DNA of 64,000 nt from Minisyncoccota bacterium (GTDB taxonomy: Bacteria; Patescibacteriota; Minisyncoccia; Phycocordibacterales; UBA918), in NCBI GenBank assembly GCA_022841645.1, contig JALHRC010000005.1:2804-66803 (forward strand). The letters are read 5' to 3'. The notes below the pieces were generated by a model. The model searched no databases. It had not been told where the DNA came from and was given only the letters and a program-made list of their open reading frames with translations. Made by a program: the position numbers and the translations under genes. Shown here one piece after another: positions 5,311 through 59,604 of the stretch. Within the stretch, counting starts at the first letter, position 1. The number at the start of each line of letters is the position of its first letter.

Positions 5311-5871
5311 ATGCCTACCACCATAAAAATGCCGTTATTGTATTCATTTATTTTAATTATTGCCGTCTTTTTCACTGTTCTTCCCACAGAGCGAGCAGAA
5401 GCCCTCAGCTGTCTGCCGGTAGCCGACTACCTTGAACAGGTAGTTGGTGGTGATGAGTTTGTCTTTATCGGGAGCATGAATGGCGGTAGCGATACTACTG
5501 GCTATTTTACCGAGCACGTGACTGTTACCAAGGCCCTTCAGGGCTATGTACCCGAGCAAATGATGCTCTACCACCGCACCGACGATACGTGGGGCTACTT
5601 CTGCAACCAGGGACCGGGCGAAAAGGGTGAGGCAGGACTCTACGTCGTCGGCTTTGATGAGTACGGCAAATATGTCGTGCACCAACGCCTCGCCCTCACT
5701 GATCCACTAGTAAAGACGCTTGAGAATGATCTTAAGGAGGCCGAAGTCACGGGTGGCATTAGCGAGCACTCGGCTAAGGACCTACGTAACCAGATTGCCG
5801 ACAAGATCCGTACCCTGTTTGCCGAAATTCTTCTCCTTATGAGCGAGTACCGCTACTGGGAAGGACGATAA
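5311..5871 (+). CDS. Hypothetical secreted protein
   Basis: It has an N-terminal signal-peptide-like segment (LLYSFILIIAVFFTVLPTERAEA), two Cys residues, and a TATAAC promoter-like sequence upstream. Confidence 0.5.
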   Translation: MPTTIKMPLLYSFILIIAVFFTVLPTERAEALSCLPVADYLEQVVGGDEFVFIGSMNGGSDTTGYFTEHVTVTKALQGYVPEQMMLYHRTDDTWGYFCNQGPGEKGEAGLYVVGFDEYGKYVVHQRLALTDPLVKTLENDLKEAEVTGGISEHSAKDLRNQIADKIRTLFAEILLLMSEYRYWEGR

Positions 5872-51743: not shown

Positions 51744-51826
51744 GCCGCGGTGGCGGAATGGTAGACGCTGCGGACTCAAAATCCGTTTCCTTCACCGGAG
51801 TGAGGGTTCAAGTCCCTCCCGCGGCA
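51744..51826 (+). tRNA. tRNA-Leu (anticodon CAA)
   Basis: It has a 7-bp acceptor GCCGCGG/CCGCGGC with discriminator A, anticodon loop CUCAAAA, a long variable arm and TpsiC TTCAAGT. Confidence 0.85.
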
Positions 51827-51960
51827 CACTGCACGTAATGTTTATGGATCCGTTTTTTACAATGAGCTCAATCATGCTTGACTTGTTTATATTATCAGAG
51901 TTGCCTTAGGAGACGATAATCTTCCACGACGGAAAGTCTATTTAGGATACACTCCGCGCC

Positions 51961-52875
51961 ATGCCGAAACCAACACTCATCGCTATCGTCGGCCCTACCG
52001 CCTCGGGCAAAAGTGCACTTGCAGTCGAGCTAGCCCTTGAGCTGGGTGGCGAGGTGATTTCTGTGGATTCACGGCAGGTGTATCGTGGCATGGACATTGG
52101 CACTGGCAAGATTACCCAGGCAGAGATGCGCGGCATTCCCCACCACCTGTTTGATCTTGTCGATCCGGTAAATGACACGTACACCGCCACCGACTTTGAG
52201 CGCGACGCCAACGCTGCTATCAGTGATATTCTTGCGCGCGGTAAACAGCCGATTCTCTGTGGTGGCACTTTCTTTTACCTCGACGTTTTGCGTGGACGCA
52301 TGTCACCAGCTCCTGTCCCTCCGAACCCGCAACTTCGTGCACAGTTAGAGGCACTTTCCCTTTCTGAACTAGAAGTGCGACTGACACAACTCGACCCCGA
52401 ACGGGCGGCCACCATCGACAGCGAAAACCCCCGTCGCCTGATTCGGTCTATCGAAATCGCTACCGCCCTTGGTCATGTGCCAAAGGCTACGCCGGTGGAA
52501 TCACCATACGACTGGCACAGTATCGGCATTGATGTACCGCCAGCGACTTTGCGCCAGCGGATTAGTGAACGACTCGACGAACGATTAGCAGCGGGCATGG
52601 TTGATGAGGTGGTGAAGCTCCACGACGATGGAGTGTCGTGGGATCGGCTCGTATCGTTTGGCCTCGAGTACCGCTACATTGCCGAACATCTACAAGGCAA
52701 GCTTTCATACGGCAACATGCGCACCCAGCTTTTTTTCGCAATTTGTGGGTACGCCAAACGCCAGCGCACGTGGCTCCGCCGCGACCCGAACATACGGTGG
52801 TATCCGTTTCCGGTTGACGTACAAACGGTACTCAAGGAACTTTCTAACTACAATTCCCCAGAACCCTTCGGTTAA
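51961..52875 (+). CDS. miaA: tRNA dimethylallyltransferase
   Basis: It has the P-loop IAIVGPTASGKS and MiaA motifs (DSRQVYRGMDIGTGK). Two perfect palindromes follow (52860-52885, 52896-52917). Confidence 0.9.
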   Translation: MPKPTLIAIVGPTASGKSALAVELALELGGEVISVDSRQVYRGMDIGTGKITQAEMRGIPHHLFDLVDPVNDTYTATDFERDANAAISDILARGKQPILCGGTFFYLDVLRGRMSPAPVPPNPQLRAQLEALSLSELEVRLTQLDPERAATIDSENPRRLIRSIEIATALGHVPKATPVESPYDWHSIGIDVPPATLRQRISERLDERLAAGMVDEVVKLHDDGVSWDRLVSFGLEYRYIAEHLQGKLSYGNMRTQLFFAICGYAKRQRTWLRRDPNIRWYPFPVDVQTVLKELSNYNSPEPFG

Positions 52876-52946
52876 CCGAAGGGTTCGCACTCTTAGTTCA
52901 GCCCGTTAGTACGATCGATCGTACTAAGTGCGCCTGCCTCTTTTTT

Positions 52947-53017
52947 AAAATTCTGTTCTCGAAAACCGATCAATGTGGTAAGATGGCCCGCATCACGGGC
53001 CTATAGTTTAGTGGTAA
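52947..53017 (+). repeat. 71-nt duplicate of the tRNA-Trp promoter region plus the first 21 nt of tRNA-Trp (identical to 53184..53254)
   Basis: There is exact 71/71 identity. The copy stops in the D-loop and is followed by unrelated sequence. Confidence 0.7.
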
Positions 53018-53030
53018 GAAGCTAGTCGCT

Positions 53031-53180
53031 TCTTCCTTTCTGCGCTCACTCGGAAATCCAAACCTCATCGGCTTGGACTTCGCTCGTTTCGCTTGAAGAA
53101 AGCCTCCGGCAGGTCTTCCTTTCTGCGCTCACTCGGAAATCCAAACCTCATCGGCTTGGACTTCGCTCGTTTCGCTTGAA
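53031..53180 (+). repeat. Tandem direct repeat: two identical 67-nt units (53031-53097 and 53114-53180) separated by 16 nt
   Basis: The unit is tcttcctttctgcgctcactcggaaatccaaacctcatcggcttggacttcgctcgtttcgcttgaa, seen twice. Confidence 0.7.
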
Positions 53181-53233
53181 AGTAAAATTCTGTTCTCGAA
53201 AACCGATCAATGTGGTAAGATGGCCCGCATCAC

Positions 53234-53304
53234 GGGCCTATAGTTTAGTGGTAAAATTCTGGTCTCCAAAACCAGCGTCCTCCGTTCGAGTCGGAGTGGG
53301 CCCG
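53234..53304 (+). tRNA. tRNA-Trp (anticodon CCA)
   Basis: It has acceptor GGGCCUA/UGGGCCC with discriminator G, anticodon loop CUCCAAA and TpsiC TTCGAGT. A TGn-TAAGAT promoter-like sequence lies upstream. Confidence 0.85.
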
Positions 53305-53580
53305 CAGTCATATACAAAAAGTTAAGCACGGCACTTGCTTTGATCAGTTTTTATTTCGCCTGCCCTCACGGTATTTCGGTCAAAACCTTTCCCTAATCGA
53401 CCTTTTTCCAAGTGATGGCGAACATACAACCCCTTTAACTAGTTGGTGGAGCGCAATGCCAATGAGCACTACGGCTGTCAGCATCGGGGCCTTCCCAGGT
53501 ACACATAGTATTGGGCGATACACGATAACCAGTAAACCCCCCAAAACTCCGTAACCGCTCGTAGGCAGTTTGCCCTGTTC

Positions 53581-54318
53581 TCATCCAGTCATAAAAACAG
53601 GGCTATTACGTGAACTCAAATCAAGCGCTTGCCCTCCCCCGTGAGCACCCACACCGGTTGGATTACCTGGCGTGCGCACACCACTCGATACTTGTACGCC
53701 GCAAGATTGCTGCATCGCAATTTGACATTCTCTCGCCAATCGGGCAATTTCTTCAAGGCGAGCCGTCGATACTCCCGCTAGCTGCACTCCAGGCTGCACA
53801 ATTACTCCGGCCGCCGTAAGAATGCGCTGTGCATCAGCTGCGGTCGCCGGGTCAGGTGCTTGGCCAGGAAAACGTGGCGCTATCGCCGCACCTTGCGGCG
53901 ACTCTGGCCGATTAACATCGGGCACGGTTTGCGCAAAACACTCAATACGACTCCACGGCAATGGTCCACCTTGCATACCCTGCACTCCCAAACCCCGGAT
54001 CAACGTATCAACAGCAATCCAGGCACCTAAAATAATGAGCAGCCCAATGAACGCACTTACAAAACTTTCCTTTGCATCTTTTAGAGCGCTAGGGTTGCCA
54101 GCAGACGTCACCAGTTTGAAACCAGCTATGACAGCCAGCACCCCAAACCCGACTAAAAGTACTCCAATGAGCCAATCAATAATTGTGTTTGCCATCATCA
54201 CAAAGTCGCACGCACTGCACGTGGCTCCACTACAGGGTACAAAACCTTGTGCCTGAGTAAGATTGGGAATAAATACAAGGACAACTAGTAACTTTGTCGC
54301 TAACCACAATCGAAGCAT
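53581..54318 (-). CDS. Pilin-like protein with VirB2/TrbC-like topology (signal peptide, CxxC, two-helix hydrophobic hairpin) plus a C-terminal soluble domain
   Basis: Its N-terminal 95 residues are paralogous to 54909..55832 (LVP.C.G..C..C, DWL, AGFKL[VL]TS[AG]GNP, second hydrophobic helix). Confidence 0.4.
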   Translation of the reverse strand: MLRLWLATKLLVVLVFIPNLTQAQGFVPCSGATCSACDFVMMANTIIDWLIGVLLVGFGVLAVIAGFKLVTSAGNPSALKDAKESFVSAFIGLLIILGAWIAVDTLIRGLGVQGMQGGPLPWSRIECFAQTVPDVNRPESPQGAAIAPRFPGQAPDPATAADAQRILTAAGVIVQPGVQLAGVSTARLEEIARLARECQIAMQQSCGVQVSSGVRTPGNPTGVGAHGGGQALDLSSRNSPVFMTG

Positions 54319-54323
54319 AAAAT

Positions 54324-54887
54324 TTATTCAACGAGAGTAACTGCACTGGGACAAAAGCTGAGACCCACGTTTTGACCACCATAAAGCTCACTTGCATTGT
54401 TGGGTACAACAACACTCACCCGTAGCGTACATAGCTCACTGGTACCTAGTTTAACAAGACTTATTAGCCGATTTTCTGCTTCGCGTCGGTAAAACGAAAG
54501 GGGCTTCTGCCAAAGACTGATGGTGAAGCTTGTATCAAAATCGCTATACGTTATGGTATAGGGAGGTAATGGCAAACTTGGATCTAACGTTCCTGCCAAG
54601 TAATAAAATCCTTCATTATTTACGTCCGGTTCTACCCCTGCGTCTTCTCGAAAGTCGGTAAGTAAAATTTCAGTGTTGTCATTTCTGGTAATCGTAAGTG
54701 GGGTTCTAACTGAGGATGTTGCATTCGGCAGATTCTGTTGGTTGTCGGGTGGGAAGATGGTCACTGGCAGCACTGGCTGCTCATATACCTCGCCCTCATC
54801 AACACCAACGACCAGAATCTGCCCCAACACAAACATGGTCAGGATGAGAACTGCAGTCGCAATAGTTAAAAGAAATGTTTTTTTCAT
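54324..54887 (-). CDS. Hypothetical secreted or membrane-anchored protein (187 aa)
   Basis: It has an N-terminal signal anchor and sits between the two pilin-like paralogs. Confidence 0.4.
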   Translation of the reverse strand: MKKTFLLTIATAVLILTMFVLGQILVVGVDEGEVYEQPVLPVTIFPPDNQQNLPNATSSVRTPLTITRNDNTEILLTDFREDAGVEPDVNNEGFYYLAGTLDPSLPLPPYTITYSDFDTSFTISLWQKPLSFYRREAENRLISLVKLGTSELCTLRVSVVVPNNASELYGGQNVGLSFCPSAVTLVE

Positions 54888-54908
54888 AACTAGTTAATTT
54901 AAGTGATA

Positions 54909-55832
54909 TTAACGACACCCATTACGAGGATTAGTATATGCGCCCCAATGATTAAACCCTTGTCGTGTGCGCAACAAATCTTGCGCTACAGCAGTGTTGC
55001 AATCAATATTTTGGGCTGCCCGTACACATTGGACATATAAATCTCGATTGAGAATGACGGCGTCGTAATTTCTGCCCCGAAAAGCACTCGTGCAATCGAG
55101 ATTTCGCCCACCGTTAAGACGCGTGCAAGCTGGTTGATTTAAATTATGAACAGTAAGGTTGACTTGATACAGACCAACCGAAAATGAATCACCGGAAGCA
55201 CGTAATCGATCGGTTGAACTAAGCGCACCAGGCATGCATGCACTTTCACCCCGAATAATGCATGACATTGTTTCAGCTGCCGCGCCCCAAGTGCCACGAA
55301 GAGCATCTGGTGAGCAGGCGCCGCTAGCTAAACGTGTTGGATCAATTAAATTGCTCGAGCTAGCATTTGTAGGAGAAAGTCCACCCTGGAGATCTGGCTG
55401 CGCCACACACTGAATCTGATTCCAGGTACCGTATATTTGTCCAGTAACCAGCGCCTTAAGCAAGGTATCAATAAGTAGCCAAGCCGCCAAAAGAACTAAA
55501 AAACCAATTGCTACGTCGTAAAAGCGTTGTTTAGCCCAGCTCCTTGCCTCAGGGTTACCGCCAGATGTAAGTAGCTTAAAGCCCGCCATCATAAAGATAA
55601 GGGCGGCAACCATTGCGAGAATAAGTACCAGCCAGTCGACAACATTGTTGATGAGCAGTACTAAATGACAGAACTGGCAGGGATTTGCTATTCCACCACA
55701 CTGTGGCACGAGCCCCGCTGCCATAGTGGTGTCTGGCGTAAATAAAAATACCGTCGCCAGAACGACGCCAAGCCCCGCCGCCAAAAACCAACGTCTCATT
55801 ACGCCCATGGTACCATGGCGCCTCACTTCCAA
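54909..55832 (-). CDS. Pilin-like (VirB2/TrbC-like N-terminus) protein with a Cys-rich C-terminal domain bearing lytic-transglycosylase-like motifs
   Basis: Its N-terminus is paralogous to 53581..54318. The C-terminal domain has ES (RGESACMPG), GLYQ (SVGLYQVN) and AYT (NHWGAYTNP) motifs reminiscent of the SLT family, plus 12 Cys. The start could instead be at the internal MGVMRR. Confidence 0.4.
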   Translation of the reverse strand: MEVRRHGTMGVMRRWFLAAGLGVVLATVFLFTPDTTMAAGLVPQCGGIANPCQFCHLVLLINNVVDWLVLILAMVAALIFMMAGFKLLTSGGNPEARSWAKQRFYDVAIGFLVLLAAWLLIDTLLKALVTGQIYGTWNQIQCVAQPDLQGGLSPTNASSSNLIDPTRLASGACSPDALRGTWGAAAETMSCIIRGESACMPGALSSTDRLRASGDSFSVGLYQVNLTVHNLNQPACTRLNGGRNLDCTSAFRGRNYDAVILNRDLYVQCVRAAQNIDCNTAVAQDLLRTRQGFNHWGAYTNPRNGCR

Positions 55833-55888
55833 AATATCTGCCTGTGTGCTACCTTGTACGGGCTTTTATAGCACGAAGAAGAGTAGTT

Positions 55889-55936
55889 GCGCCGGTGGTG
55901 GAGTGGATGAAAAGTGAAGCGTTTCACTTTTCATCC
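55889..55936 (+). repeat. 18-nt fragment matching the tRNA-Tyr 5' end (gcgccggtggtggagtgg) fused to a perfect 14-bp hairpin
   Basis: It matches the acceptor/D-arm of tRNA-Tyr (17/18). The hairpin is ggatgaaaagtgaa-gcg-ttcacttttcatcc. Confidence 0.5.
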
Positions 55937-56061
55937 AGTCTTCCGCTAGTGCGGAAGAAGGGTCGTTGTGAGTACATGCGGAGCTTGCACGAACAGACCC
56001 TAGGAGGAATCGCGGACGAACGCCCATAGAAATCAAAGCGTTCCAATTAAAATCTATATTA

Positions 56062-56098
56062 CGTCGGTGGTGGAGTGGTCAATCACAACAGACTGTAA
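56062..56098 (+). repeat. 37-nt exact duplicate of the 5' half of tRNA-Tyr (through the anticodon), followed by a hairpin-rich 150-nt insert
   Basis: It is identical to 56252..56288. Serial perfect hairpins follow downstream (atgtgtcttc/gaagacacat, gtcgc/gcgac, aaatct/agattt). Confidence 0.65.
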
Positions 56099-56250
56099 GA
56101 CTGACGCTTCGCGCACCAGGCAGTCTTTCTGGCAGATGTGTCTTCCACCGAAGACACATTAAAAAGTCGCTATAGCGACACACCAGTAAATCTTACAGAT
56201 TTCCAGTCTAGATAGATTACGAAAAACATTTGAGTTACAATTGCATATCT

Positions 56251-56333
56251 GCGTCGGTGGTGGAGTGGTCAATCACAACAGACTGTAAATCTGTCGGCTT
56301 CGGCCTACGAAGGTTCGAATCCTTCCCGGCGCA
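56251..56333 (+). tRNA. tRNA-Tyr (anticodon GUA)
   Basis: It has acceptor GCGUCGG/CCGGCGC with discriminator A, anticodon loop CUGUAAA, a long variable arm and TpsiC TTCGAAT. Two terminator hairpins follow. Confidence 0.85.
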
Positions 56334-56455
56334 CAGGTCGTGAAAAACTTGACGTTTTTCCTCAGAAAGCTCTTGTATATCAAGGGCTTTTTTGGTGCCG
56401 AACCTACCTAGACTATCGCCAAGCTTCTTATAAACATTTTGAAAGCCGATTAGTT

Positions 56456-56854
56456 ATGTTTTGCACTAACTGCGGAAACAAAATCGACATAAATGAAAAG
56501 TTTTGCACAAATTGTGGACTTGAAGGTTTGGGCATTAACAACAAAAACCCACAAACTGCTCGAGAAACAGCTATCAGCGTAAAGAAAGATGAAAAATTGT
56601 ATCACAGATTAGGTGTGGTAATTTATGTGATAGCCCACCTTCCATTACTTGTTATTGTTCCTGTGGTTTGGTCAGAAAATGCAAGGTACTACAGTAGCTA
56701 CACTAAAACATACTCCGGCTCTGATTTTGAAGCGTTTTTGTATTCAGTCTTAACTATTATTATTTGCCTCTTAGTGCTTCGTCTGATTAAAATGGCGACT
56801 AAATATATTGTGATAGGTATAAAGCCCAAGATGCGAGATTTGATATTTTTCTAA
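56456..56854 (+). CDS. Zinc-ribbon domain membrane protein (132 aa)
   Basis: It has an N-terminal CTNCG-x10-CTNCG zinc ribbon and two TM helices. Confidence 0.5.
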   Translation: MFCTNCGNKIDINEKFCTNCGLEGLGINNKNPQTARETAISVKKDEKLYHRLGVVIYVIAHLPLLVIVPVVWSENARYYSSYTKTYSGSDFEAFLYSVLTIIICLLVLRLIKMATKYIVIGIKPKMRDLIFF

Positions 56855-56884
56855 AAAGAACCAACCAAGTACAACAACACTAGG

Positions 56885-57214
56885 ATGGCAACTTTTAAAG
56901 TCACACAGGAAGCAAAAGAACTTTTTGACAAGCTTGTCGCGGAAGGGATTTTTGCTGAACTAGAATACTGGGACGGGTACAAACACGTCGATATACACAT
57001 CCCATTAGCAAAACTTTACATTGAAGTCGATGGAGCCCAACACTTCACAAATCCCAACCAAATAGCCAGTGATTTTCTCAGAGACCACTACTCAGACAAT
57101 AGTGGCTACGACACCTTCAGAATTCCAAACCAAATAGTTAGAGATAAAATGAATACTGTAGTAAAAGCTATTTTAAAGATTGTTTCTGAACGATCTCACC
57201 ATCAGATTTTGTAA
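56885..57214 (+). CDS. DUF559 endonuclease-domain protein (Vsr/restriction-endonuclease-like fold)
   Basis: It has the VDIHIP..KLYIEVDGAQHF motif characteristic of DUF559. Confidence 0.55.
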   Translation: MATFKVTQEAKELFDKLVAEGIFAELEYWDGYKHVDIHIPLAKLYIEVDGAQHFTNPNQIASDFLRDHYSDNSGYDTFRIPNQIVRDKMNTVVKAILKIVSERSHHQIL

Positions 57215-57334
57215 AGGCAAGATACAAACCAGAAAGACTTTCTAAATCCAATTGAGCTTGAGAGTCAGAAATCGCAACCTTATACTGTCTAAACATGTAA
57301 TCTTGATATTTTGTTACTAATTTTACAGTAAACC

Positions 57335-58315
57335 TCATACAATTTTGGTGTCTGGTGACTCAAAAAGATCAGGATGTGTCAAAACTTTAGTCCCAATTTT
57401 TGAACATATTACTTTTTTTTGCGCGCAAGCTACACGCAAAGAAAGTATTGGCTTACCTGTGATTTTTGACACTTCTGATAAAGACAATAATTTTTTTATA
57501 TCATTAAATCTATTACAAATAACCACATCAAGTGCTATTGCTAGACTCTTATTAATAATCTCTTCTAGTTGCAAGGGTGGCTTTACAAACGGATCTTTGA
57601 AATTGTTTTTGATAATCGTTTGAACTATTGGATCGGCATGTTCGAGCGCATCTATATATTCTTTTCTGTCTTTTTCGCTACCCTTTATAGCAATGTTTGG
57701 ATAACCGTGCGCAACTAAAATAAAATTCATCAAGATTCTACCGACACGCCCATTACCATCAGGAAAAGGGTGAATTTGCTCAAACATATCGTGGACTATT
57801 GCAAGCTTTCTCACCAAATAATCCGTAGGCGTAGGCGTATTAGCAACCTCAATAAGCCCTTCAATATGACGCTCAATTTCAAAAGGTGATGAAGTTTTGA
57901 CCTTCGCACCTGTAATCTCTATGTCTCCCTTTCGCCATTCTCCAGGTGTGTAAGAAAAATTTGGGTCTCCTCTAAACATCAAAGAGTGAATTTGACGAAT
58001 AATTGCTTTAGACAATTTAAACTCTTTTGTCTGGAATTGCTGAAAAGCTAATTCGTACGCCGCAAATGCGGCATCAAAATAACCAAGTACTCGATACTCA
58101 GTTTTTGAGTATTTTGGATTATCAATAATATCAATAATATCTGTTCGACTGACAAAATACCCTTCTATCATTAATGAGTTTCTTGTATCCTCTTTAAGAA
58201 GATCCATCCACTCTTTATTTCGAACAGAAACACCACTCAACCCTCCCACATGAAAAAACCACTCAAATCTAAGATTTGCAGTTGAATTTGGTATGATTCT
58301 TCGTTTTATTGTCAT
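57335..58315 (-). CDS. Fic family protein (AMPylator-type motif HPFPDGNGRVGR)
   Basis: It has the canonical Fic motif HPFx[DE]GNGRxxR at HPFPDGNGRVGRIL. An extremely AT-rich multi-TATAAT upstream region spans 58316-58520. Confidence 0.75.
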   Translation of the reverse strand: MTIKRRIIPNSTANLRFEWFFHVGGLSGVSVRNKEWMDLLKEDTRNSLMIEGYFVSRTDIIDIIDNPKYSKTEYRVLGYFDAAFAAYELAFQQFQTKEFKLSKAIIRQIHSLMFRGDPNFSYTPGEWRKGDIEITGAKVKTSSPFEIERHIEGLIEVANTPTPTDYLVRKLAIVHDMFEQIHPFPDGNGRVGRILMNFILVAHGYPNIAIKGSEKDRKEYIDALEHADPIVQTIIKNNFKDPFVKPPLQLEEIINKSLAIALDVVICNRFNDIKKLLSLSEVSKITGKPILSLRVACAQKKVICSKIGTKVLTHPDLFESPDTKIV

Positions 58316-58537
58316 GTAAATTTTCTATTTACTAAGCAAGATCTAATACTTTTATTTACAAAGCATTATTTTAAGCCCTCTTTACTCAATGTTGATATAA
58401 TATCATATAATACTAAACTCGCAATAATCTATTATAATATAGTTTATATGGCTTAAAATATAAGTATATTACAAAAGTATAATAATCTCTTATTTTATCA
58501 TAATTATACATTTATATTTGAATATTACCCCACACAA

Positions 58538-58561
58538 AAGTGTCGAACCAACTCCAGCTCG
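58538..58561 (+). repeat. 24-nt direct repeat R1 (aagtgtcgaaccaactccagctcg) at the 3' flank of the rhuM-doc gene
   Basis: It is 23/24 identical to R2 at 59581..59604. Confidence 0.6.
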
Positions 58562-58573
58562 GCGCACAGAAAA

Positions 58574-59554
58574 CTACCGCAACATTTGTGTTACAAGCGC
58601 TACCATCTGCTCTTTCTTCTTTGGATCACTTTCGGCTATCAAAAGCGTAAGGGCAGTGAGTGCTGCTGGATTAATATTCTTTGCTCCTTTCACTCCCACC
58701 TTACGTAAGAACCACACAAAGGCAAACGCTCCTGAGCGCTTGTTGCCATCAGAAAATGGATGGTTCTTTACCATAAAGTAGAGCAGGTGTGCCGCTTTTT
58801 CCTCGACAGTTGGGTACACCGACTTACCACCAAATGACTGCATGACGTTACCGACGATACCTTCAATATTTCCTTCTCGCCGCTCGCTAGCAAACAAATC
58901 AGTGGCCTCCCCTTTCTTTATAAGTTCGCGCTTTAGTTCACTGATTACCAAGAGTAAATCACCTCCAACAAGCGCGACCTTCTTTTTAGTTACCCCCTTT
59001 AGTTCAAGGGTCTCCTTATCATACGCATCAAGGGAAACCCAGGTACCAGCAAATTCTTTTATTAGCTCAAGGACGGCTTTGGGGTCAAGGGTAACCTGAT
59101 CAGGTAACAAAGCTTGTACATCCGACACCGCTTTCATAAAAGCATCGTAATTTTGTGCAACTCGTTTTCGGTTTACGGTATACCCTTTGGTGACATGTTC
59201 ACGCAGAGTCTTAGTAGCCCACTGTCGAAAAGTAGTGGCTTTTTTGCTATTTACTCGATAACCAACAGAAAGAATCATATCGAGGCTGTAGTGATTTACT
59301 TCGCGCTCAATCTGACGCTTTCCTTCAAGCTGAAGTATCCGGAATTTCCGGATAGTTGCTTTTTCGACCAACTCTTCCGTCTTATAGATATTCTTAATGT
59401 GCTCGTTAATAGTTCGCACATCTACATCAAAAGCTAGGGCGATCTGTACTTGTGTTGCCCACACTGTTTCCATTTCCGAATCGCCCCGCAACTCCAAAGC
59501 ACCAGACTTAGTCTGGTAAATTACCATTTTTTGTTCCGACTTTTTCTTAGCCAT
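58574..59554 (-). CDS. RhuM-family N-terminal domain fused to a Doc-type Fic domain (HPFSDGNKR)
   Basis: It has a RhuM-like N-terminus (KMVIYQTKSGALELRGD..VWATQ..IA) and a Doc-type motif HPFSDGNKRSGAFAF. Confidence 0.7.
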   Translation of the reverse strand: MAKKKSEQKMVIYQTKSGALELRGDSEMETVWATQVQIALAFDVDVRTINEHIKNIYKTEELVEKATIRKFRILQLEGKRQIEREVNHYSLDMILSVGYRVNSKKATTFRQWATKTLREHVTKGYTVNRKRVAQNYDAFMKAVSDVQALLPDQVTLDPKAVLELIKEFAGTWVSLDAYDKETLELKGVTKKKVALVGGDLLLVISELKRELIKKGEATDLFASERREGNIEGIVGNVMQSFGGKSVYPTVEEKAAHLLYFMVKNHPFSDGNKRSGAFAFVWFLRKVGVKGAKNINPAALTALTLLIAESDPKKKEQMVALVTQMLR

Positions 59555-59580
59555 ATTAAGTGCATTTTAACATGAAGCAG

Positions 59581-59604
59581 AAGTGTCGAACCATCTCCAG
59601 CTCG
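59581..59604 (+). repeat. 24-nt direct repeat R2 (aagtgtcgaaccatctccagctcg) at the 5' flank of the rhuM-doc gene
   Basis: It is 23/24 identical to R1 and lies 26 nt upstream of the start codon. Confidence 0.6.

Follow-up and report, generated by a model that had tools for sequence, protein, structure and literature searches.

Integrative elements in tRNA genes leave partial duplications of the gene at attL and attR, and Williams reportedly sorted them in 2002 into classes according to their sublocation within the gene. The miniature elements derived from IS200/IS605, namely the PATEs and the REP/BIME sequences, use TTAC as a target, form hairpins at their ends on one strand, keep a fixed orientation and lack terminal inverted repeats. 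Compact insertions into the loops of structural RNAs are also familiar, as the intervening sequences of bacterial rRNA and as the non-canonical D-loop introns and split tRNA genes of archaea. The locus analyzed here surrounds the tRNA-Trp gene in a stretch of 64,000 nt (hereafter the window) from a member of the Patescibacteria. A 165-nt insert upstream of this gene consists of two tandem copies of a conserved, structured non-coding element of ~83 nt, unannotated, which we refer to as E. Our best overall explanation is that E is a conserved structured element residing in a dead copy of tRNA-Trp, that the intact gene was preserved through an in-place duplication, and that E acts as a minus-strand RNA; taken as a whole, we consider this proposal to be evenly balanced. 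A full-text literature search found no description of such elements.

The 5′ region of tRNA-Trp is present as an exact direct repeat that combines 51 nt from upstream of the gene with tRNA-Trp nt 1–21, and the identity stops at both edges with no further extension on either side (Table 1). An earlier reading, made from the sequence only, had recognized this duplication of promoter and tRNA 5′ segment, as well as the succession of displaced 5′ piece, insert and intact gene. The anatomy is as it described, except that the repeat spans 72 nt instead of 71 and the insert between the copies (53018–53182) is 165 nt and not 166 nt long. The two identical 67-nt units that it saw within the insert, 16 nt apart, are present as well, and the 67-mer finds no match in 100 shuffles of the window. 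Its rejection of a CRISPR array also stands, as there are just two 67-nt units with one 16-nt spacer, and other genomes carry a single copy of the structured element to which these units belong.

Table 1. Positions of features at the tRNA-Trp and tRNA-Tyr loci of the window
Feature	Position	Strand	Description
Repeat copy 1	52946–53017	+	Q′, promoter-like segment and H1; exact 72-nt repeat
Q′	52946–52967		TAAAATTCTGTTCTCGAAAACC; 20/22 positions match tRNA-Trp nt 19–40
Promoter-like segment	52968–52996		extended −10 TGGTAAGAT at 52977–52985
H1 (tRNA-Trp nt 1–21)	52997–53017		
E copy 1	53018–53097	−	hairpin 1, then 67-nt core (53031–53097)
E copy 2	53098–53182	−	16-nt hairpin-1 insert, identical 67-nt core (53114–53180), AG
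Repeat copy 2	53183–53254	+	Q′, promoter-like segment and first 21 nt of the intact gene
Intact tRNA-Trp(CCA)	53234–53305	+	ARAGORN; Rfam RF00005, 61.6 bits
tRNA-Tyr 5′ fragment (nt 1–18) and Tyr-A	55889–56060	+	fragment 55889–55906; Tyr-A ~55907–56030
Second tRNA-Tyr 5′ fragment (nt 1–38) and Tyr-B	56061–56250	+	fragment 56061–56098, broken in the anticodon loop
Intact tRNA-Tyr(GTA)	56251–56334	+	ARAGORN; Rfam tRNA

The segment at 52968–52996 is a putative promoter, judging by its resemblance to consensus, and the TGGTAAGAT..CCCATCAC motif is kept after miaA in three relatives (L089, L090 and L094). The intact tRNA-Trp differs by 1 nt from that of L091. Within E copy 1, hairpin 1 (AAGAAGC-TAGTC-GCTTCTT) occupies 53016–53034, and the core comprises an outer helix and hairpin 2. 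Copy 2 has a distinct 16-nt hairpin-1 insert, GAAAGCCTCCGGCAGG, at 53098–53113. This block, equal in length in both copies, is the sole difference between them; simple tandem duplication does not explain it cleanly, and gene conversion does no better. The insert holds short ORFs only (≤32 aa); those spanning the H1/E1 and E1/E2 junctions were looked up and none is on record as a called gene, and no ORF is conserved across the family.

Homologues of E, ~85–100 nt in length, occupy this junction in at least eight further species of Patescibacteria. All of the loci follow a constant order of tRNA-Trp nt 1–20/21, E, a tRNA-like piece starting at nt ~19, variable leader/promoter DNA and the intact tRNA-Trp, so that E sits where the D-loop would be in a dead 5′ copy of tRNA-Trp. 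The best MiaA match among GTDB representatives is only ~55% identical, and the locus comparison therefore used metagenome contigs. Scanning these with the tRNA-Trp 5′ 21-mer identified six distinct loci (L099, L147, L152 = L161, L184, L201 and L202), each with an insert homologue after the 21-mer and an intact tRNA-Trp 150–240 nt from the fragment start. These first six came from a probe that demanded a perfect H1; sampling of MiaA relatives, which is independent of the 21-mer, added L223/224 and L229/230, and H1 itself is substituted in L223 and L229. The family alignment is small, with 7–9 sequences. A covariance model (R1) scores E copy 2 at 73.5 bits (53111–53190, E-value 3e-11) and copy 1 at 51.8 bits (53028–53106, E-value 6e-7), and the window copies are true members of the family.

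The distribution of E is patchy. It is absent from L089, L090, L091–93, L094, L220–222 and L225–228, the closest relatives of the window included. The sequence-only reading had suggested looking for the 67-nt unit elsewhere; an unfiltered model search detects no further copy of E in the 64-kb window, nor in L152, L201 or L202. Homologues of the insert are likewise missing from the rest of the window and from 94 related loci, and a set of 219 loci returns family members only. With Rfam 15, only tRNAs reach the threshold in the window and nothing matches over E at an E-value ≤10; in the E loci L099, L147, L184 and L202, nothing matches over E at ≤5. The E cores of L099 and L201 are ~95% identical and their MiaA proteins 57%, and the corresponding values for L099 and L152 are 81% and 80%. 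The E of L229 scores 100.5 bits and is nearly identical by eye to that of L099, with MiaA 70% identical and the flanking leader roughly 78% (an estimate by eye). In L202, E is found at tRNA-Trp despite different neighbouring genes.

The fold of E is supported by covariation. Its core has 94% of cells paired, with compensatory changes in 9 of 15 core pairs; none of 500 shuffles reaches these values, and shifted-register controls collapse. E thus shows the compensatory substitutions generally expected of a structured RNA. The two strands differ in how well they accommodate this fold. The consensus is more stable on the minus strand (−19.6 kcal/mol) than on the plus strand (−15.4 kcal/mol), and the minus strand accepts as G·U pairs ~15 cells that read as A·C mismatches in the plus orientation. 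One more helix and a tandem G·A motif (CGAG/CGAG) form on the minus strand as well. The minus-strand MFE is lower in seven of the eight E copies, including window copy 1 (−37.6 versus −25.2 kcal/mol) and copy 2 (−36.1 versus −24.1 kcal/mol). The minus strand of the window insert has a folding z-score of −6.05; for the entire locus (52997–53305), read on the plus strand, the value is −1.5. These comparisons suggest that the fold has been selected on the strand opposite to the tRNA. We note that the asymmetry is no proof of RNA, since folded single-stranded DNA also tolerates G·T pairs. A hammerhead or other ribozyme was considered and rejected: the minus-strand CCGATGAGG is hammerhead-like by eye, but there is no Rfam match at an E-value ≤10 and the core is unfit.

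The DNA surrounding E derives from the host locus. In the window, the duplicated segment runs for 72 nt from the tRNA-like motif Q′ to tRNA nt 21. The promoter copy beside the intact gene matches the resident one with 100% identity, and homology to this resident promoter sequence is seen just after miaA in relatives without E. The duplicated segment of L152 begins at a AGAATTCAG motif and ends at tRNA nt 20, with copies ~90% identical; L223 shares this layout, and in both loci the two copies are diverged duplicates of the resident leader. Furthermore, where E is present, the conserved promoter TTCGCCTACTATGTA precedes H1, and where E is missing, it precedes the tRNA. Because the promoter copy is resident sequence, the 5′ part was duplicated in place and not imported, and it is this duplication of the resident leader and the 5′ end of the gene that explains the survival of an intact tRNA-Trp.

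We propose that E entered the D-loop site of a tRNA-Trp gene and that only those loci keeping an intact copy were viable. In the window and in L152/L223, the duplication may have arisen by unequal exchange or slippage between the upstream Q′ (TAAAATTCTG) and an identical 10-mer inside the gene, and the fact that each of the two repeat pairs in the window is perfectly identical would point to a recent duplication or to gene conversion. Recombination between the flanking repeats would delete E easily, which could account for its patchy distribution. Q′ is also present in L091, which lacks E, and this counts against our explanation. No integrase or transposase is found among 30 window ORFs scanned. 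A Campbell-type mini-circle bringing E together with leader and H was rejected, because the leader between E and the gene is resident and evolves independently of E.

A similar arrangement at tRNA-Tyr, 3 kb away, had also been reported in the sequence-only reading and is borne out, with two 5′ fragments ahead of the intact gene. The first fragment lies behind the ancestral promoter, whose motif tgtgtgctaNNttgtacgggctt is common to L091 and L094, and the element that follows it, Tyr-A, has homologues after tRNA-Tyr nt 1–18 in L201 and L202. Compensatory changes affect 11 of 38 predicted Tyr-A pairs, with the G·U pairs on the plus strand, and by these comparisons Tyr-A qualifies as a second conserved structured element. 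The second fragment begins with A where the gene has G. It is followed by Tyr-B, an insert of ~90 nt (56100–56190) with GTAA at both sides; next come a short stretch that resembles tRNA (GTAAATCT) and upstream DNA that is new. No homologue of Tyr-B occurs in any of the fetched loci. The downstream flank of tRNA-Tyr is conserved with L091.

As for function, E is most likely a putative small structured RNA of the minus strand, although we are less certain on this point. The proposal is based on the selection of the fold on that strand and on the ~95% identity of E in the face of MiaA identities of 57–70%. Such an RNA would fold into two hairpins, the first of them long and irregular with the tandem G·A motif in it. 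On the 5′ side, where the flank reads GAAUU(U/C)UAC, ~9–10 nt are complementary to tRNA-Trp nt 18–28, and they vary in step with the tRNA of the host. The role of E may thus be tied to tRNA-Trp, for example through pairing with the tRNA or its precursor, or through insulation of the locus. Complementarity of the flanks to tRNA-Trp is automatic, as the flanks derive from the gene, and the sharp drop in conservation after ~9–10 nt is the sole sign that hints at selection on them. No conserved −35/−10 elements are seen upstream of E on the minus strand. Hairpin 1 would make a weak terminator on the minus strand and is more terminator-like on the plus strand, where U/C-rich tracts follow.

The alternative that survives best holds that E is a non-autonomous mobile DNA with a single site and no benefit to the host, moved either by an IS200/IS605-like single-strand "peel and paste" reaction or by a recombinase acting on the inverted repeat of the D-arm. 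E would then be seen only in decoy copies because insertion into the sole functional gene is lethal. Several observations speak for it. The minus strand of E lies directly 3′ of (T/C)TAC, its own end is TTAC, and the Tyr-B insert of the window has the same GTAA/TTAC bounds; given that E also ends in TTAC, a 3-nt target duplication is indistinguishable from a tetranucleotide-target pattern. Hairpins are located 17–19 nt from the left end and beside the right end, with similar stem bases (GAAAT..ATTTC) in most copies. The partial tRNA copies break in the D-loop, anticodon loop and T-loop, that is, in loops between inverted repeats, E is patchy, and its similarity is out of step with that of MiaA (compare L099–L201 with L099–L152, above). 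Finally, the structured strand is the G-rich one, as the GC skew of the window plus strand is uniformly negative; by the orientation bias of IS608, this strand would be the lagging-strand template. Against this, E is confined to a single locus in each genome segment examined, with no other copy in 64 kb despite abundant TTAC, and it has no terminal inverted repeats. The 30 ORFs scanned encode no Y1 transposase, TnpB, integrase or reverse transcriptase. L099 and L229 share both E and a recognizably homologous leader, a pattern that vertical descent would produce if E changes at a slower rate than the DNA beside it. Moreover, a closing helix that covaries and a tandem G·A motif characterize a functional fold and are not known from IS608-type ends. 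We regard a purely mobile E as unlikely, but it keeps an appreciable minority share of the probability.

A plus-strand alternative places E in the leader of tRNA-Trp, so that the ancestral promoter transcribes H1 and E and hairpin 1 terminates or attenuates the transcript, with a cis-regulatory or insulating effect. The conserved promoter is indeed found upstream of H1 at every E locus, TTTCTTTCTTTC-type tracts follow hairpin 1 on the plus strand, and the analogous Tyr-A folds on the plus strand and starts at the ancestral tRNA-Tyr promoter. The fold itself speaks for the other strand. On the plus strand, the helices of E contain ~8 A·C mismatches against 1 G·U, the conserved CTCG/CTCG pair becomes tandem pyrimidine mismatches, the MFE is the less favorable one in all but one of the eight copies, and the folding of the window locus is unexceptional by its z-score. 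We rate a leader function as rather improbable, somewhat below mobility.

The sequence-only reading took the locus for the scar of a larger integrative element that had carried its own promoter and the 5′ part of tRNA-Trp and had since lost nearly all of its DNA. This proposal accommodates the attL-insert-attR-like anatomy, with a direct repeat of a tRNA segment and the intact gene on one side. It is also in keeping with the tRNA-Tyr locus, where the intact gene has new upstream DNA and the ancestral promoter stays with the leftmost fragment, and where the DNA directly downstream is a low-GC island that includes Fic and DUF559 genes. The comparative data nevertheless contradict it already. A deletion remnant should not recur as the same short sequence, with compensatory base-pair changes, at the same junction in eight other species; conservation and covariation at a fixed junction defeat the idea of a random leftover. 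The comparison of tRNA-Trp loci, which that reading had itself recommended, thus reveals a conserved structure in relatives, the very outcome that it had named as fatal to a remnant. Nor was the promoter-proximal part brought by an element, as the flank is resident DNA duplicated in place in the window, L152 and L223, with its post-miaA homologue in relatives without E. There is no integrase remnant, the ORFs between the repeats reaching 32 aa at most, and viral contigs yield no exact-pattern match to the tRNA-Trp and tRNA-Tyr 5′ segments and none to the gapped E motif; the exact pattern of the E hairpin core has no match in viral contigs or in metagenome contigs. A scar is in our view very improbable.

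The repeat is also visible in independent assemblies. Logan contigs (k = 31) were drawn from runs SRR28154518-31, with at least six independent runs represented; the source community itself is covered by runs SRR28154513-31. Those with an identical MiaA all end at window position 52975, 30 nt inside copy 1, and those with the downstream gene all begin at 53225, 30 nt short of where copy 2 ends; one such contig is present in six samples. Two left and two right contexts in the reads are the signature of a true repeat, which makes an assembly artefact unlikely. The k = 31 graphs alone also fit a single-copy chromosome plus a separate molecule with E and the repeat. Only reads or k-mers that exceed 72 nt can tell these apart, and the 69.9-kb NCBI contig was presumably built from such data. 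Although the source is a metagenome-assembled contig and both repeat pairs are 100% identical, an artefact or a strain mixture collapsed into one contig has next to no probability, given graphs whose branch points coincide with the two ends of the 72-nt repeat in at least six independent runs, and the same architecture in eight other species from unrelated data sets, where the diverged repeats exclude assembly errors.

It is possible, though on balance doubtful, that these inserts represent a new class of small structured elements in the loop positions of truncated tRNA copies, with E and Tyr-A in D-loops, Tyr-B in an anticodon loop and a further family in T-loops downstream of tRNAs. E would then be either a trans-acting antisense-strand RNA with a flank that pairs to tRNA-Trp, or a new site-specific element coupled to the in-place duplication of gene end and promoter. 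If E is a functional RNA, it constitutes a conserved non-coding gene that annotation has missed, in bacterial genomes that rank among the smallest and least understood, and it is tied physically and perhaps functionally to a single-copy essential tRNA. If it is a mobile element, insertion into an essential gene is made survivable through in-place duplication of the promoter and 5′ end, and the targeting of tRNA genes extends to the D-loop and the 5′ side, which classical integrase systems avoid. Generally, partial tRNA copies around structured inserts of ~100–200 nt appear to be common in these genomes. They bear on tRNA annotation and on the finding of genomic islands, and the repeats matter for genome assembly from metagenomes because short-read contigs break there.

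The closest parallels lie in four systems. Like the attL/attR duplications of tRNA genes, the locus has a piece of the tRNA gene on both sides of foreign DNA with the intact gene kept, and breaks in tRNA loops that are flanked by the inverted repeats of stems. It differs in that the 5′ part and promoter are duplicated, not the 3′ part, in that the duplicated part is resident and not supplied by the element, and in that E is 83–100 nt long, geneless, conserved and structured, in contrast to a decaying remnant. With the PATE and REP/BIME sequences, E shares the absence of terminal inverted repeats, one-strand hairpins near the ends, a position 3′ of a TTAC-like tetranucleotide and a fixed orientation. 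Yet it occupies one locus per genome segment and is not dispersed in many copies, its closing helix covaries, it contains a tandem G·A motif, its target region is duplicated over 72 to ~200 nt, and no Y1 transposase is detected among the 30 ORFs in the 64 kb of genome examined. Like rRNA intervening sequences and archaeal introns, E is a helix-closed insertion in the loop of a structural-RNA gene, sporadic among relatives; unlike them, it interrupts a truncated, decaying copy beside an uninterrupted gene, and because it folds on the antisense strand, the tRNA transcript cannot contain it as an intron or intervening sequence. Finally, E resembles bacterial sRNAs and cis-antisense RNAs in its length of ~90 nt, its covariation-supported hairpins, its conservation above that of the flanks and a stretch, possibly single-stranded, with complementarity to a cellular RNA. 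It departs from these and from Rfam families in having no Rfam match, no recognizable promoter and only a weak terminator, and in its location, embedded between two fragments of its would-be target gene.

The tRNA-Trp(CCA) gene of the window is preceded by an exact direct repeat of 72 nt, established by a repeat search and a direct extension test, which comprises 51 nt of upstream sequence and nt 1-21 of the tRNA. The copies are separated by 165 nt, within which two identical 67-nt units lie 16 nt apart. The sequence-only reading had recognized this succession of displaced 5' piece, insert and intact gene, and only its lengths for repeat and insert (71 and 166 nt) were each off by one. It also correctly reported the same pattern at tRNA-Tyr, where two 5' fragments lie upstream of the gene, and properly rejected a CRISPR: the two units and their 16-nt spacer are two tandem copies of E, an element of about 83 nt. 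The copies are identical in their core and carry different versions of a variable hairpin (hairpin 1).

Coordinates of the tRNA-Trp and tRNA-Tyr features in the window
Feature	Position	Remark
72-nt direct repeat	52946-53017 and 53183-53254	exact
67-nt units	53031-53097 and 53114-53180	identical
Intact tRNA-Trp(CCA)	53234-53305	ARAGORN; Rfam tRNA 61.6 bits
tRNA-Tyr region	55889-56334	two 5' fragments and gene

The repeat was tested at read level with k=31 short-read contigs from independent sequencing runs. Contigs encoding an identical MiaA protein all stop at 52975, 30 nt inside the first copy, and those with the downstream gene begin at 53225, 30 nt short of the end of the second; one of these contigs also stops 30 nt inside the tRNA-Tyr repeat. 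Such ends are expected of a genuine repeat that has two contexts on its left and two on its right, making an invention of the assembler unlikely. An assembly artefact is contradicted by the read-level data, as it is by the comparative data.

A metagenome scan with the 5' 21-mer of tRNA-Trp returned 120 loci. At six distinct ones the 21-mer does not begin a tRNA and is followed by a clear homologue of the window insert, a short tRNA-Trp-like piece from nt ~19 (TAGAATTC...), 40-130 nt of variable DNA and the intact tRNA-Trp. A second sampling, drawn from MiaA relatives of one E locus and independent of the 21-mer, yielded two further species with E (L223/224 and L229/230; L-numbers denote loci on metagenome contigs) and two lacking it (L220-222 and L225-228). 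E occupies the same junction in nine species of Patescibacteria, the window included, and at L202 it still adjoins tRNA-Trp although the neighboring genes differ. It is a conserved family of structured elements with a fixed position within a truncated tRNA-Trp copy. Under a covariance model of the family the window copies reach 73.5 and 51.8 bits; run with filters off, the model detects no further copy either in the window or in three long contigs that carry E. E has no protein-coding capacity and no Rfam match, and none was found in viral contigs. A weak E-like core (26.6 bits) was seen at L119 366-433 on the minus strand, between an ORF and a terminator; it has the ACTCGGAAAT / ATTTCTCTCG motifs and the closing helix, and is free-standing, with no tRNA fragments around it.

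The alignment supports hairpin 1, a 5-bp closing helix and an enclosed hairpin 2. The closing helix covaries (CTTTC/GAAAG, CTTCG/CGAAG, CTAGC/GCTAG, CTTGA/TCAAG, CTTCC/GGAAG); in the fold as a whole, paired cells amount to 94% and compensatory changes affect 9 of the 15 pairs. None of 500 shuffles equals the real values, and shifted registers collapse. Mismatches on the plus strand are nearly all A·C, which become G·U on the minus strand. There the consensus is more stable (-19.6 vs -15.4 kcal/mol, with about 15 G·U cells), and an additional helix forms, as does a tandem G·A motif, the conserved CGAG/CGAG; individually, 7 of 8 copies reach the lower energy on this strand. The minus strand of the window insert has z = -6.05, whereas the plus strand, folded over the entire locus (52997-53305), gives -1.5. 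These predicted folds provide evidence that the structured strand of E is the one opposite the tRNA, and so point either to an RNA made from the minus strand or to single-stranded DNA that folds. With its fold on the minus strand, E cannot be an intron or intervening sequence within the tRNA transcript. Hairpins with CCCCCGG-type loops follow tRNA-Leu 5' fragments (nt 1-26) at L209 ~5400-5520 and L009 ~5700-5800; similar ones lie immediately upstream of tRNA-Trp in L099, L152 and L184, and the window spacer (53098-53113, GAAAGCCTCCGGCAGG) resembles them.

The duplicated flank is resident DNA. In the E-less relatives L089, L090 and L094, TGGTAAGAT and then CGCCCATCAC occur at the miaA stop codon, and the promoter-like segment of the window (GTGGTAAGATGGCCCGCATCAC) is homologous to that motif. 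Since the two window copies are identical, the one adjoining the intact tRNA did not come in from elsewhere. In L152 the copies are ~90% identical, start at a AGAATTCAG motif and finish at tRNA nt 20; L223 has the same layout. The first bases of the window repeat, TAAAATTCTGTTCTCGAAAACC, agree with tRNA-Trp nt 19-40 at 20/22 positions, and the repeat finishes at nt 21, so that one short sequence edges the duplicated unit on both sides, upstream of the promoter (Q') and inside the gene. L091, without E, already has TAAAATTCT at the matching upstream place. By these comparisons the leader and 5' end of tRNA-Trp were duplicated in place, and the proposal of the sequence-only reading, a remnant of an element that had brought the 5' end with it, proved wrong. 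A deletion remnant is likewise contradicted by the recurrence of the same E at the same junction across species. We infer that unequal exchange or slippage between Q' and the short repeat in the gene produced the arrangement; once duplicated, the locus could carry E at the D-loop of one copy and still retain an intact gene. Recombination of the flanking repeats would remove E cleanly, which fits its patchy distribution.

E is also more constrained than its surroundings. The cores of L099 and L201 are ~95% identical with MiaA at 57%, and the E of L229 (100.5 bits) is by eye near-identical to that of L099, with MiaA at 70% and the leader between E and gene at ~78% (by eye). One or two substitutions have entered the truncated tRNA (nt 1-21) in L229 and L223. 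All species have kept the first ~9-10 nt past E intact (GTAGAATTC; window, GTAAAATTC), and this stretch tracks the host tRNA variant; the bases beyond diverge fast. The closely related L099 and L152 (MiaA 80%) have E just 81% identical, which reflects either rate variation or occasional exchange of E between lineages.

The window order is RelA/SpoT, ParB, tRNA-Leu(CAA), MiaA and tRNA-Trp, then T4SS-pilin-like genes (PF18895) on the opposite strand and tRNA-Tyr. The best MiaA match in reference genomes, from Patescibacteria (Kaiserbacteria/Paceibacteria), is ~55% identical; nearer relatives (L089, L090, L091-93, L094; MiaA 67-74%, shared synteny) exist as metagenome contigs only. They lack the 5' fragment and insert and have one tRNA-Trp each, that of L091 differing from the window's by one base. 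tRNA-Tyr is single in L091, L092 and L094, whose contigs are long enough to include it. In window 52850-52996, the C-terminus of MiaA (..LQNSGFMVR*) is unlike that of L089, L090 and L094, and the non-coding promoter-like segment resembles the relatives' miaA 3' end and stop region, as if new sequence had displaced the old end of the gene. The flanking of miaA by tRNA-Leu(CAA), tRNA-Trp(CCA) and tRNA-Tyr(GTA) (window 51744-56334) is kept in relatives (L091, L094, L152, L201); all three tRNAs decode UNN codons, the class modified by MiaA. A LAGLIDADG_3 homing-endonuclease ORF separates parB from miaA in L223 (1831-2409) and L224 (1512-2177), at the place taken in relatives by tRNA-Leu(CAA), and may represent an intron within or close to that gene.

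At tRNA-Tyr, the leftmost fragment (55889-55906) lies behind an ancestral promoter common to L091 and L094. Next comes another conserved element, Tyr-A, whose homologues in L201 and L202 likewise come after tRNA-Tyr nt 1-18. Tyr-A is structured on the plus strand, with compensatory changes at 11 of 38 predicted pairs; some predicted pairs include the tRNA-Tyr fragment itself, which in the consensus fold pairs with sequence farther downstream, an alternative to forming a local hairpin. The second fragment is broken in the anticodon loop and carries another insert, Tyr-B, between GTAA repeats, with no homologue among the fetched loci. A low-GC stretch (56340-59600; 38-41% vs ~52% elsewhere) adjoins tRNA-Tyr downstream and encodes zinc-ribbon, DUF559 (Vsr-like), Fic and RhuM-Fic proteins; it resembles a small genomic island on the 3' side of the tRNA.

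Partial tRNA copies are frequent over all fetched Patescibacteria loci, making the tRNA-Trp structure one case of a wider feature of these genomes; we found no published description of such copies flanking inserts. Measured from the gene start, the 5' fragments are 84-362 nt upstream and the 3' fragments start 135-413 nt downstream, broken in the D-loop, anticodon loop or T-loop, and they often flank structured inserts of ~100-200 nt. Inserts of ~100-250 nt also follow many tRNAs (L174, L180, L017, L202, L152, L199, L106, L016, L009; L091 2990-3110; L094 9100-9500). They are edged by a duplicated segment from T-loop to 3' end, at times with the terminator, and contain part of the tRNA 3' end in inverted orientation. 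A core, GGGGTCGCG...hairpin...CGTGACCGC, recurs among them, up to three times in tandem. Two tandem 84-nt units precede tRNA-Val in L139 (~1310-1553), each combining a promoter-like stretch with nt 1-25 of tRNA-Val and, where the anticodon arm would be, a perfect palindrome, GTCCGATGGCCATCGGAC; in L125 a related pseudo-tRNA lies after tRNA-Val. In L154 (2869 nt) a tRNA-like gene with matching 5'/3' ends is split by ~280 nt containing a complete tRNA-Ala. The archaeal-looking contigs L134 and L149 (32% GC), one of which encodes an Alba-like protein, have no intact tRNA-Trp within 2 kb of the 23-mer GGGCCTATAGTTTAGTGGTAAAG; this precedes a 325-aa ORF in L134, and in L149 a homologous frame begins at the equivalent position. 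The site might represent a tRNA that is split or contains an intron, or else a genuine place of integration.

With moderate confidence, E is probably a small minus-strand RNA tied to tRNA-Trp. The confidence is limited, and two rivals are kept, because no minus-strand promoter is recognizable and a terminator-like hairpin is stronger on the plus strand. A mobile element of single-stranded DNA is less likely, although some features recall IS200/IS605-type elements: on the minus strand it sits 3' of (T/C)TAC, ends in TTAC and has hairpins close to both ends, and GTAA also bounds Tyr-B. Against this, E is single-copy and no integrase or transposase was found among 30 scanned ORFs of the window. 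That E serves as a plus-strand leader or terminator, as the stronger hairpin would suggest, is less probable still given the minus-strand fold. The E family is unannotated and its genomic setting is unusual; it relates to kinds already known, namely structured non-coding elements and tRNA-gene insertions with partial duplication.
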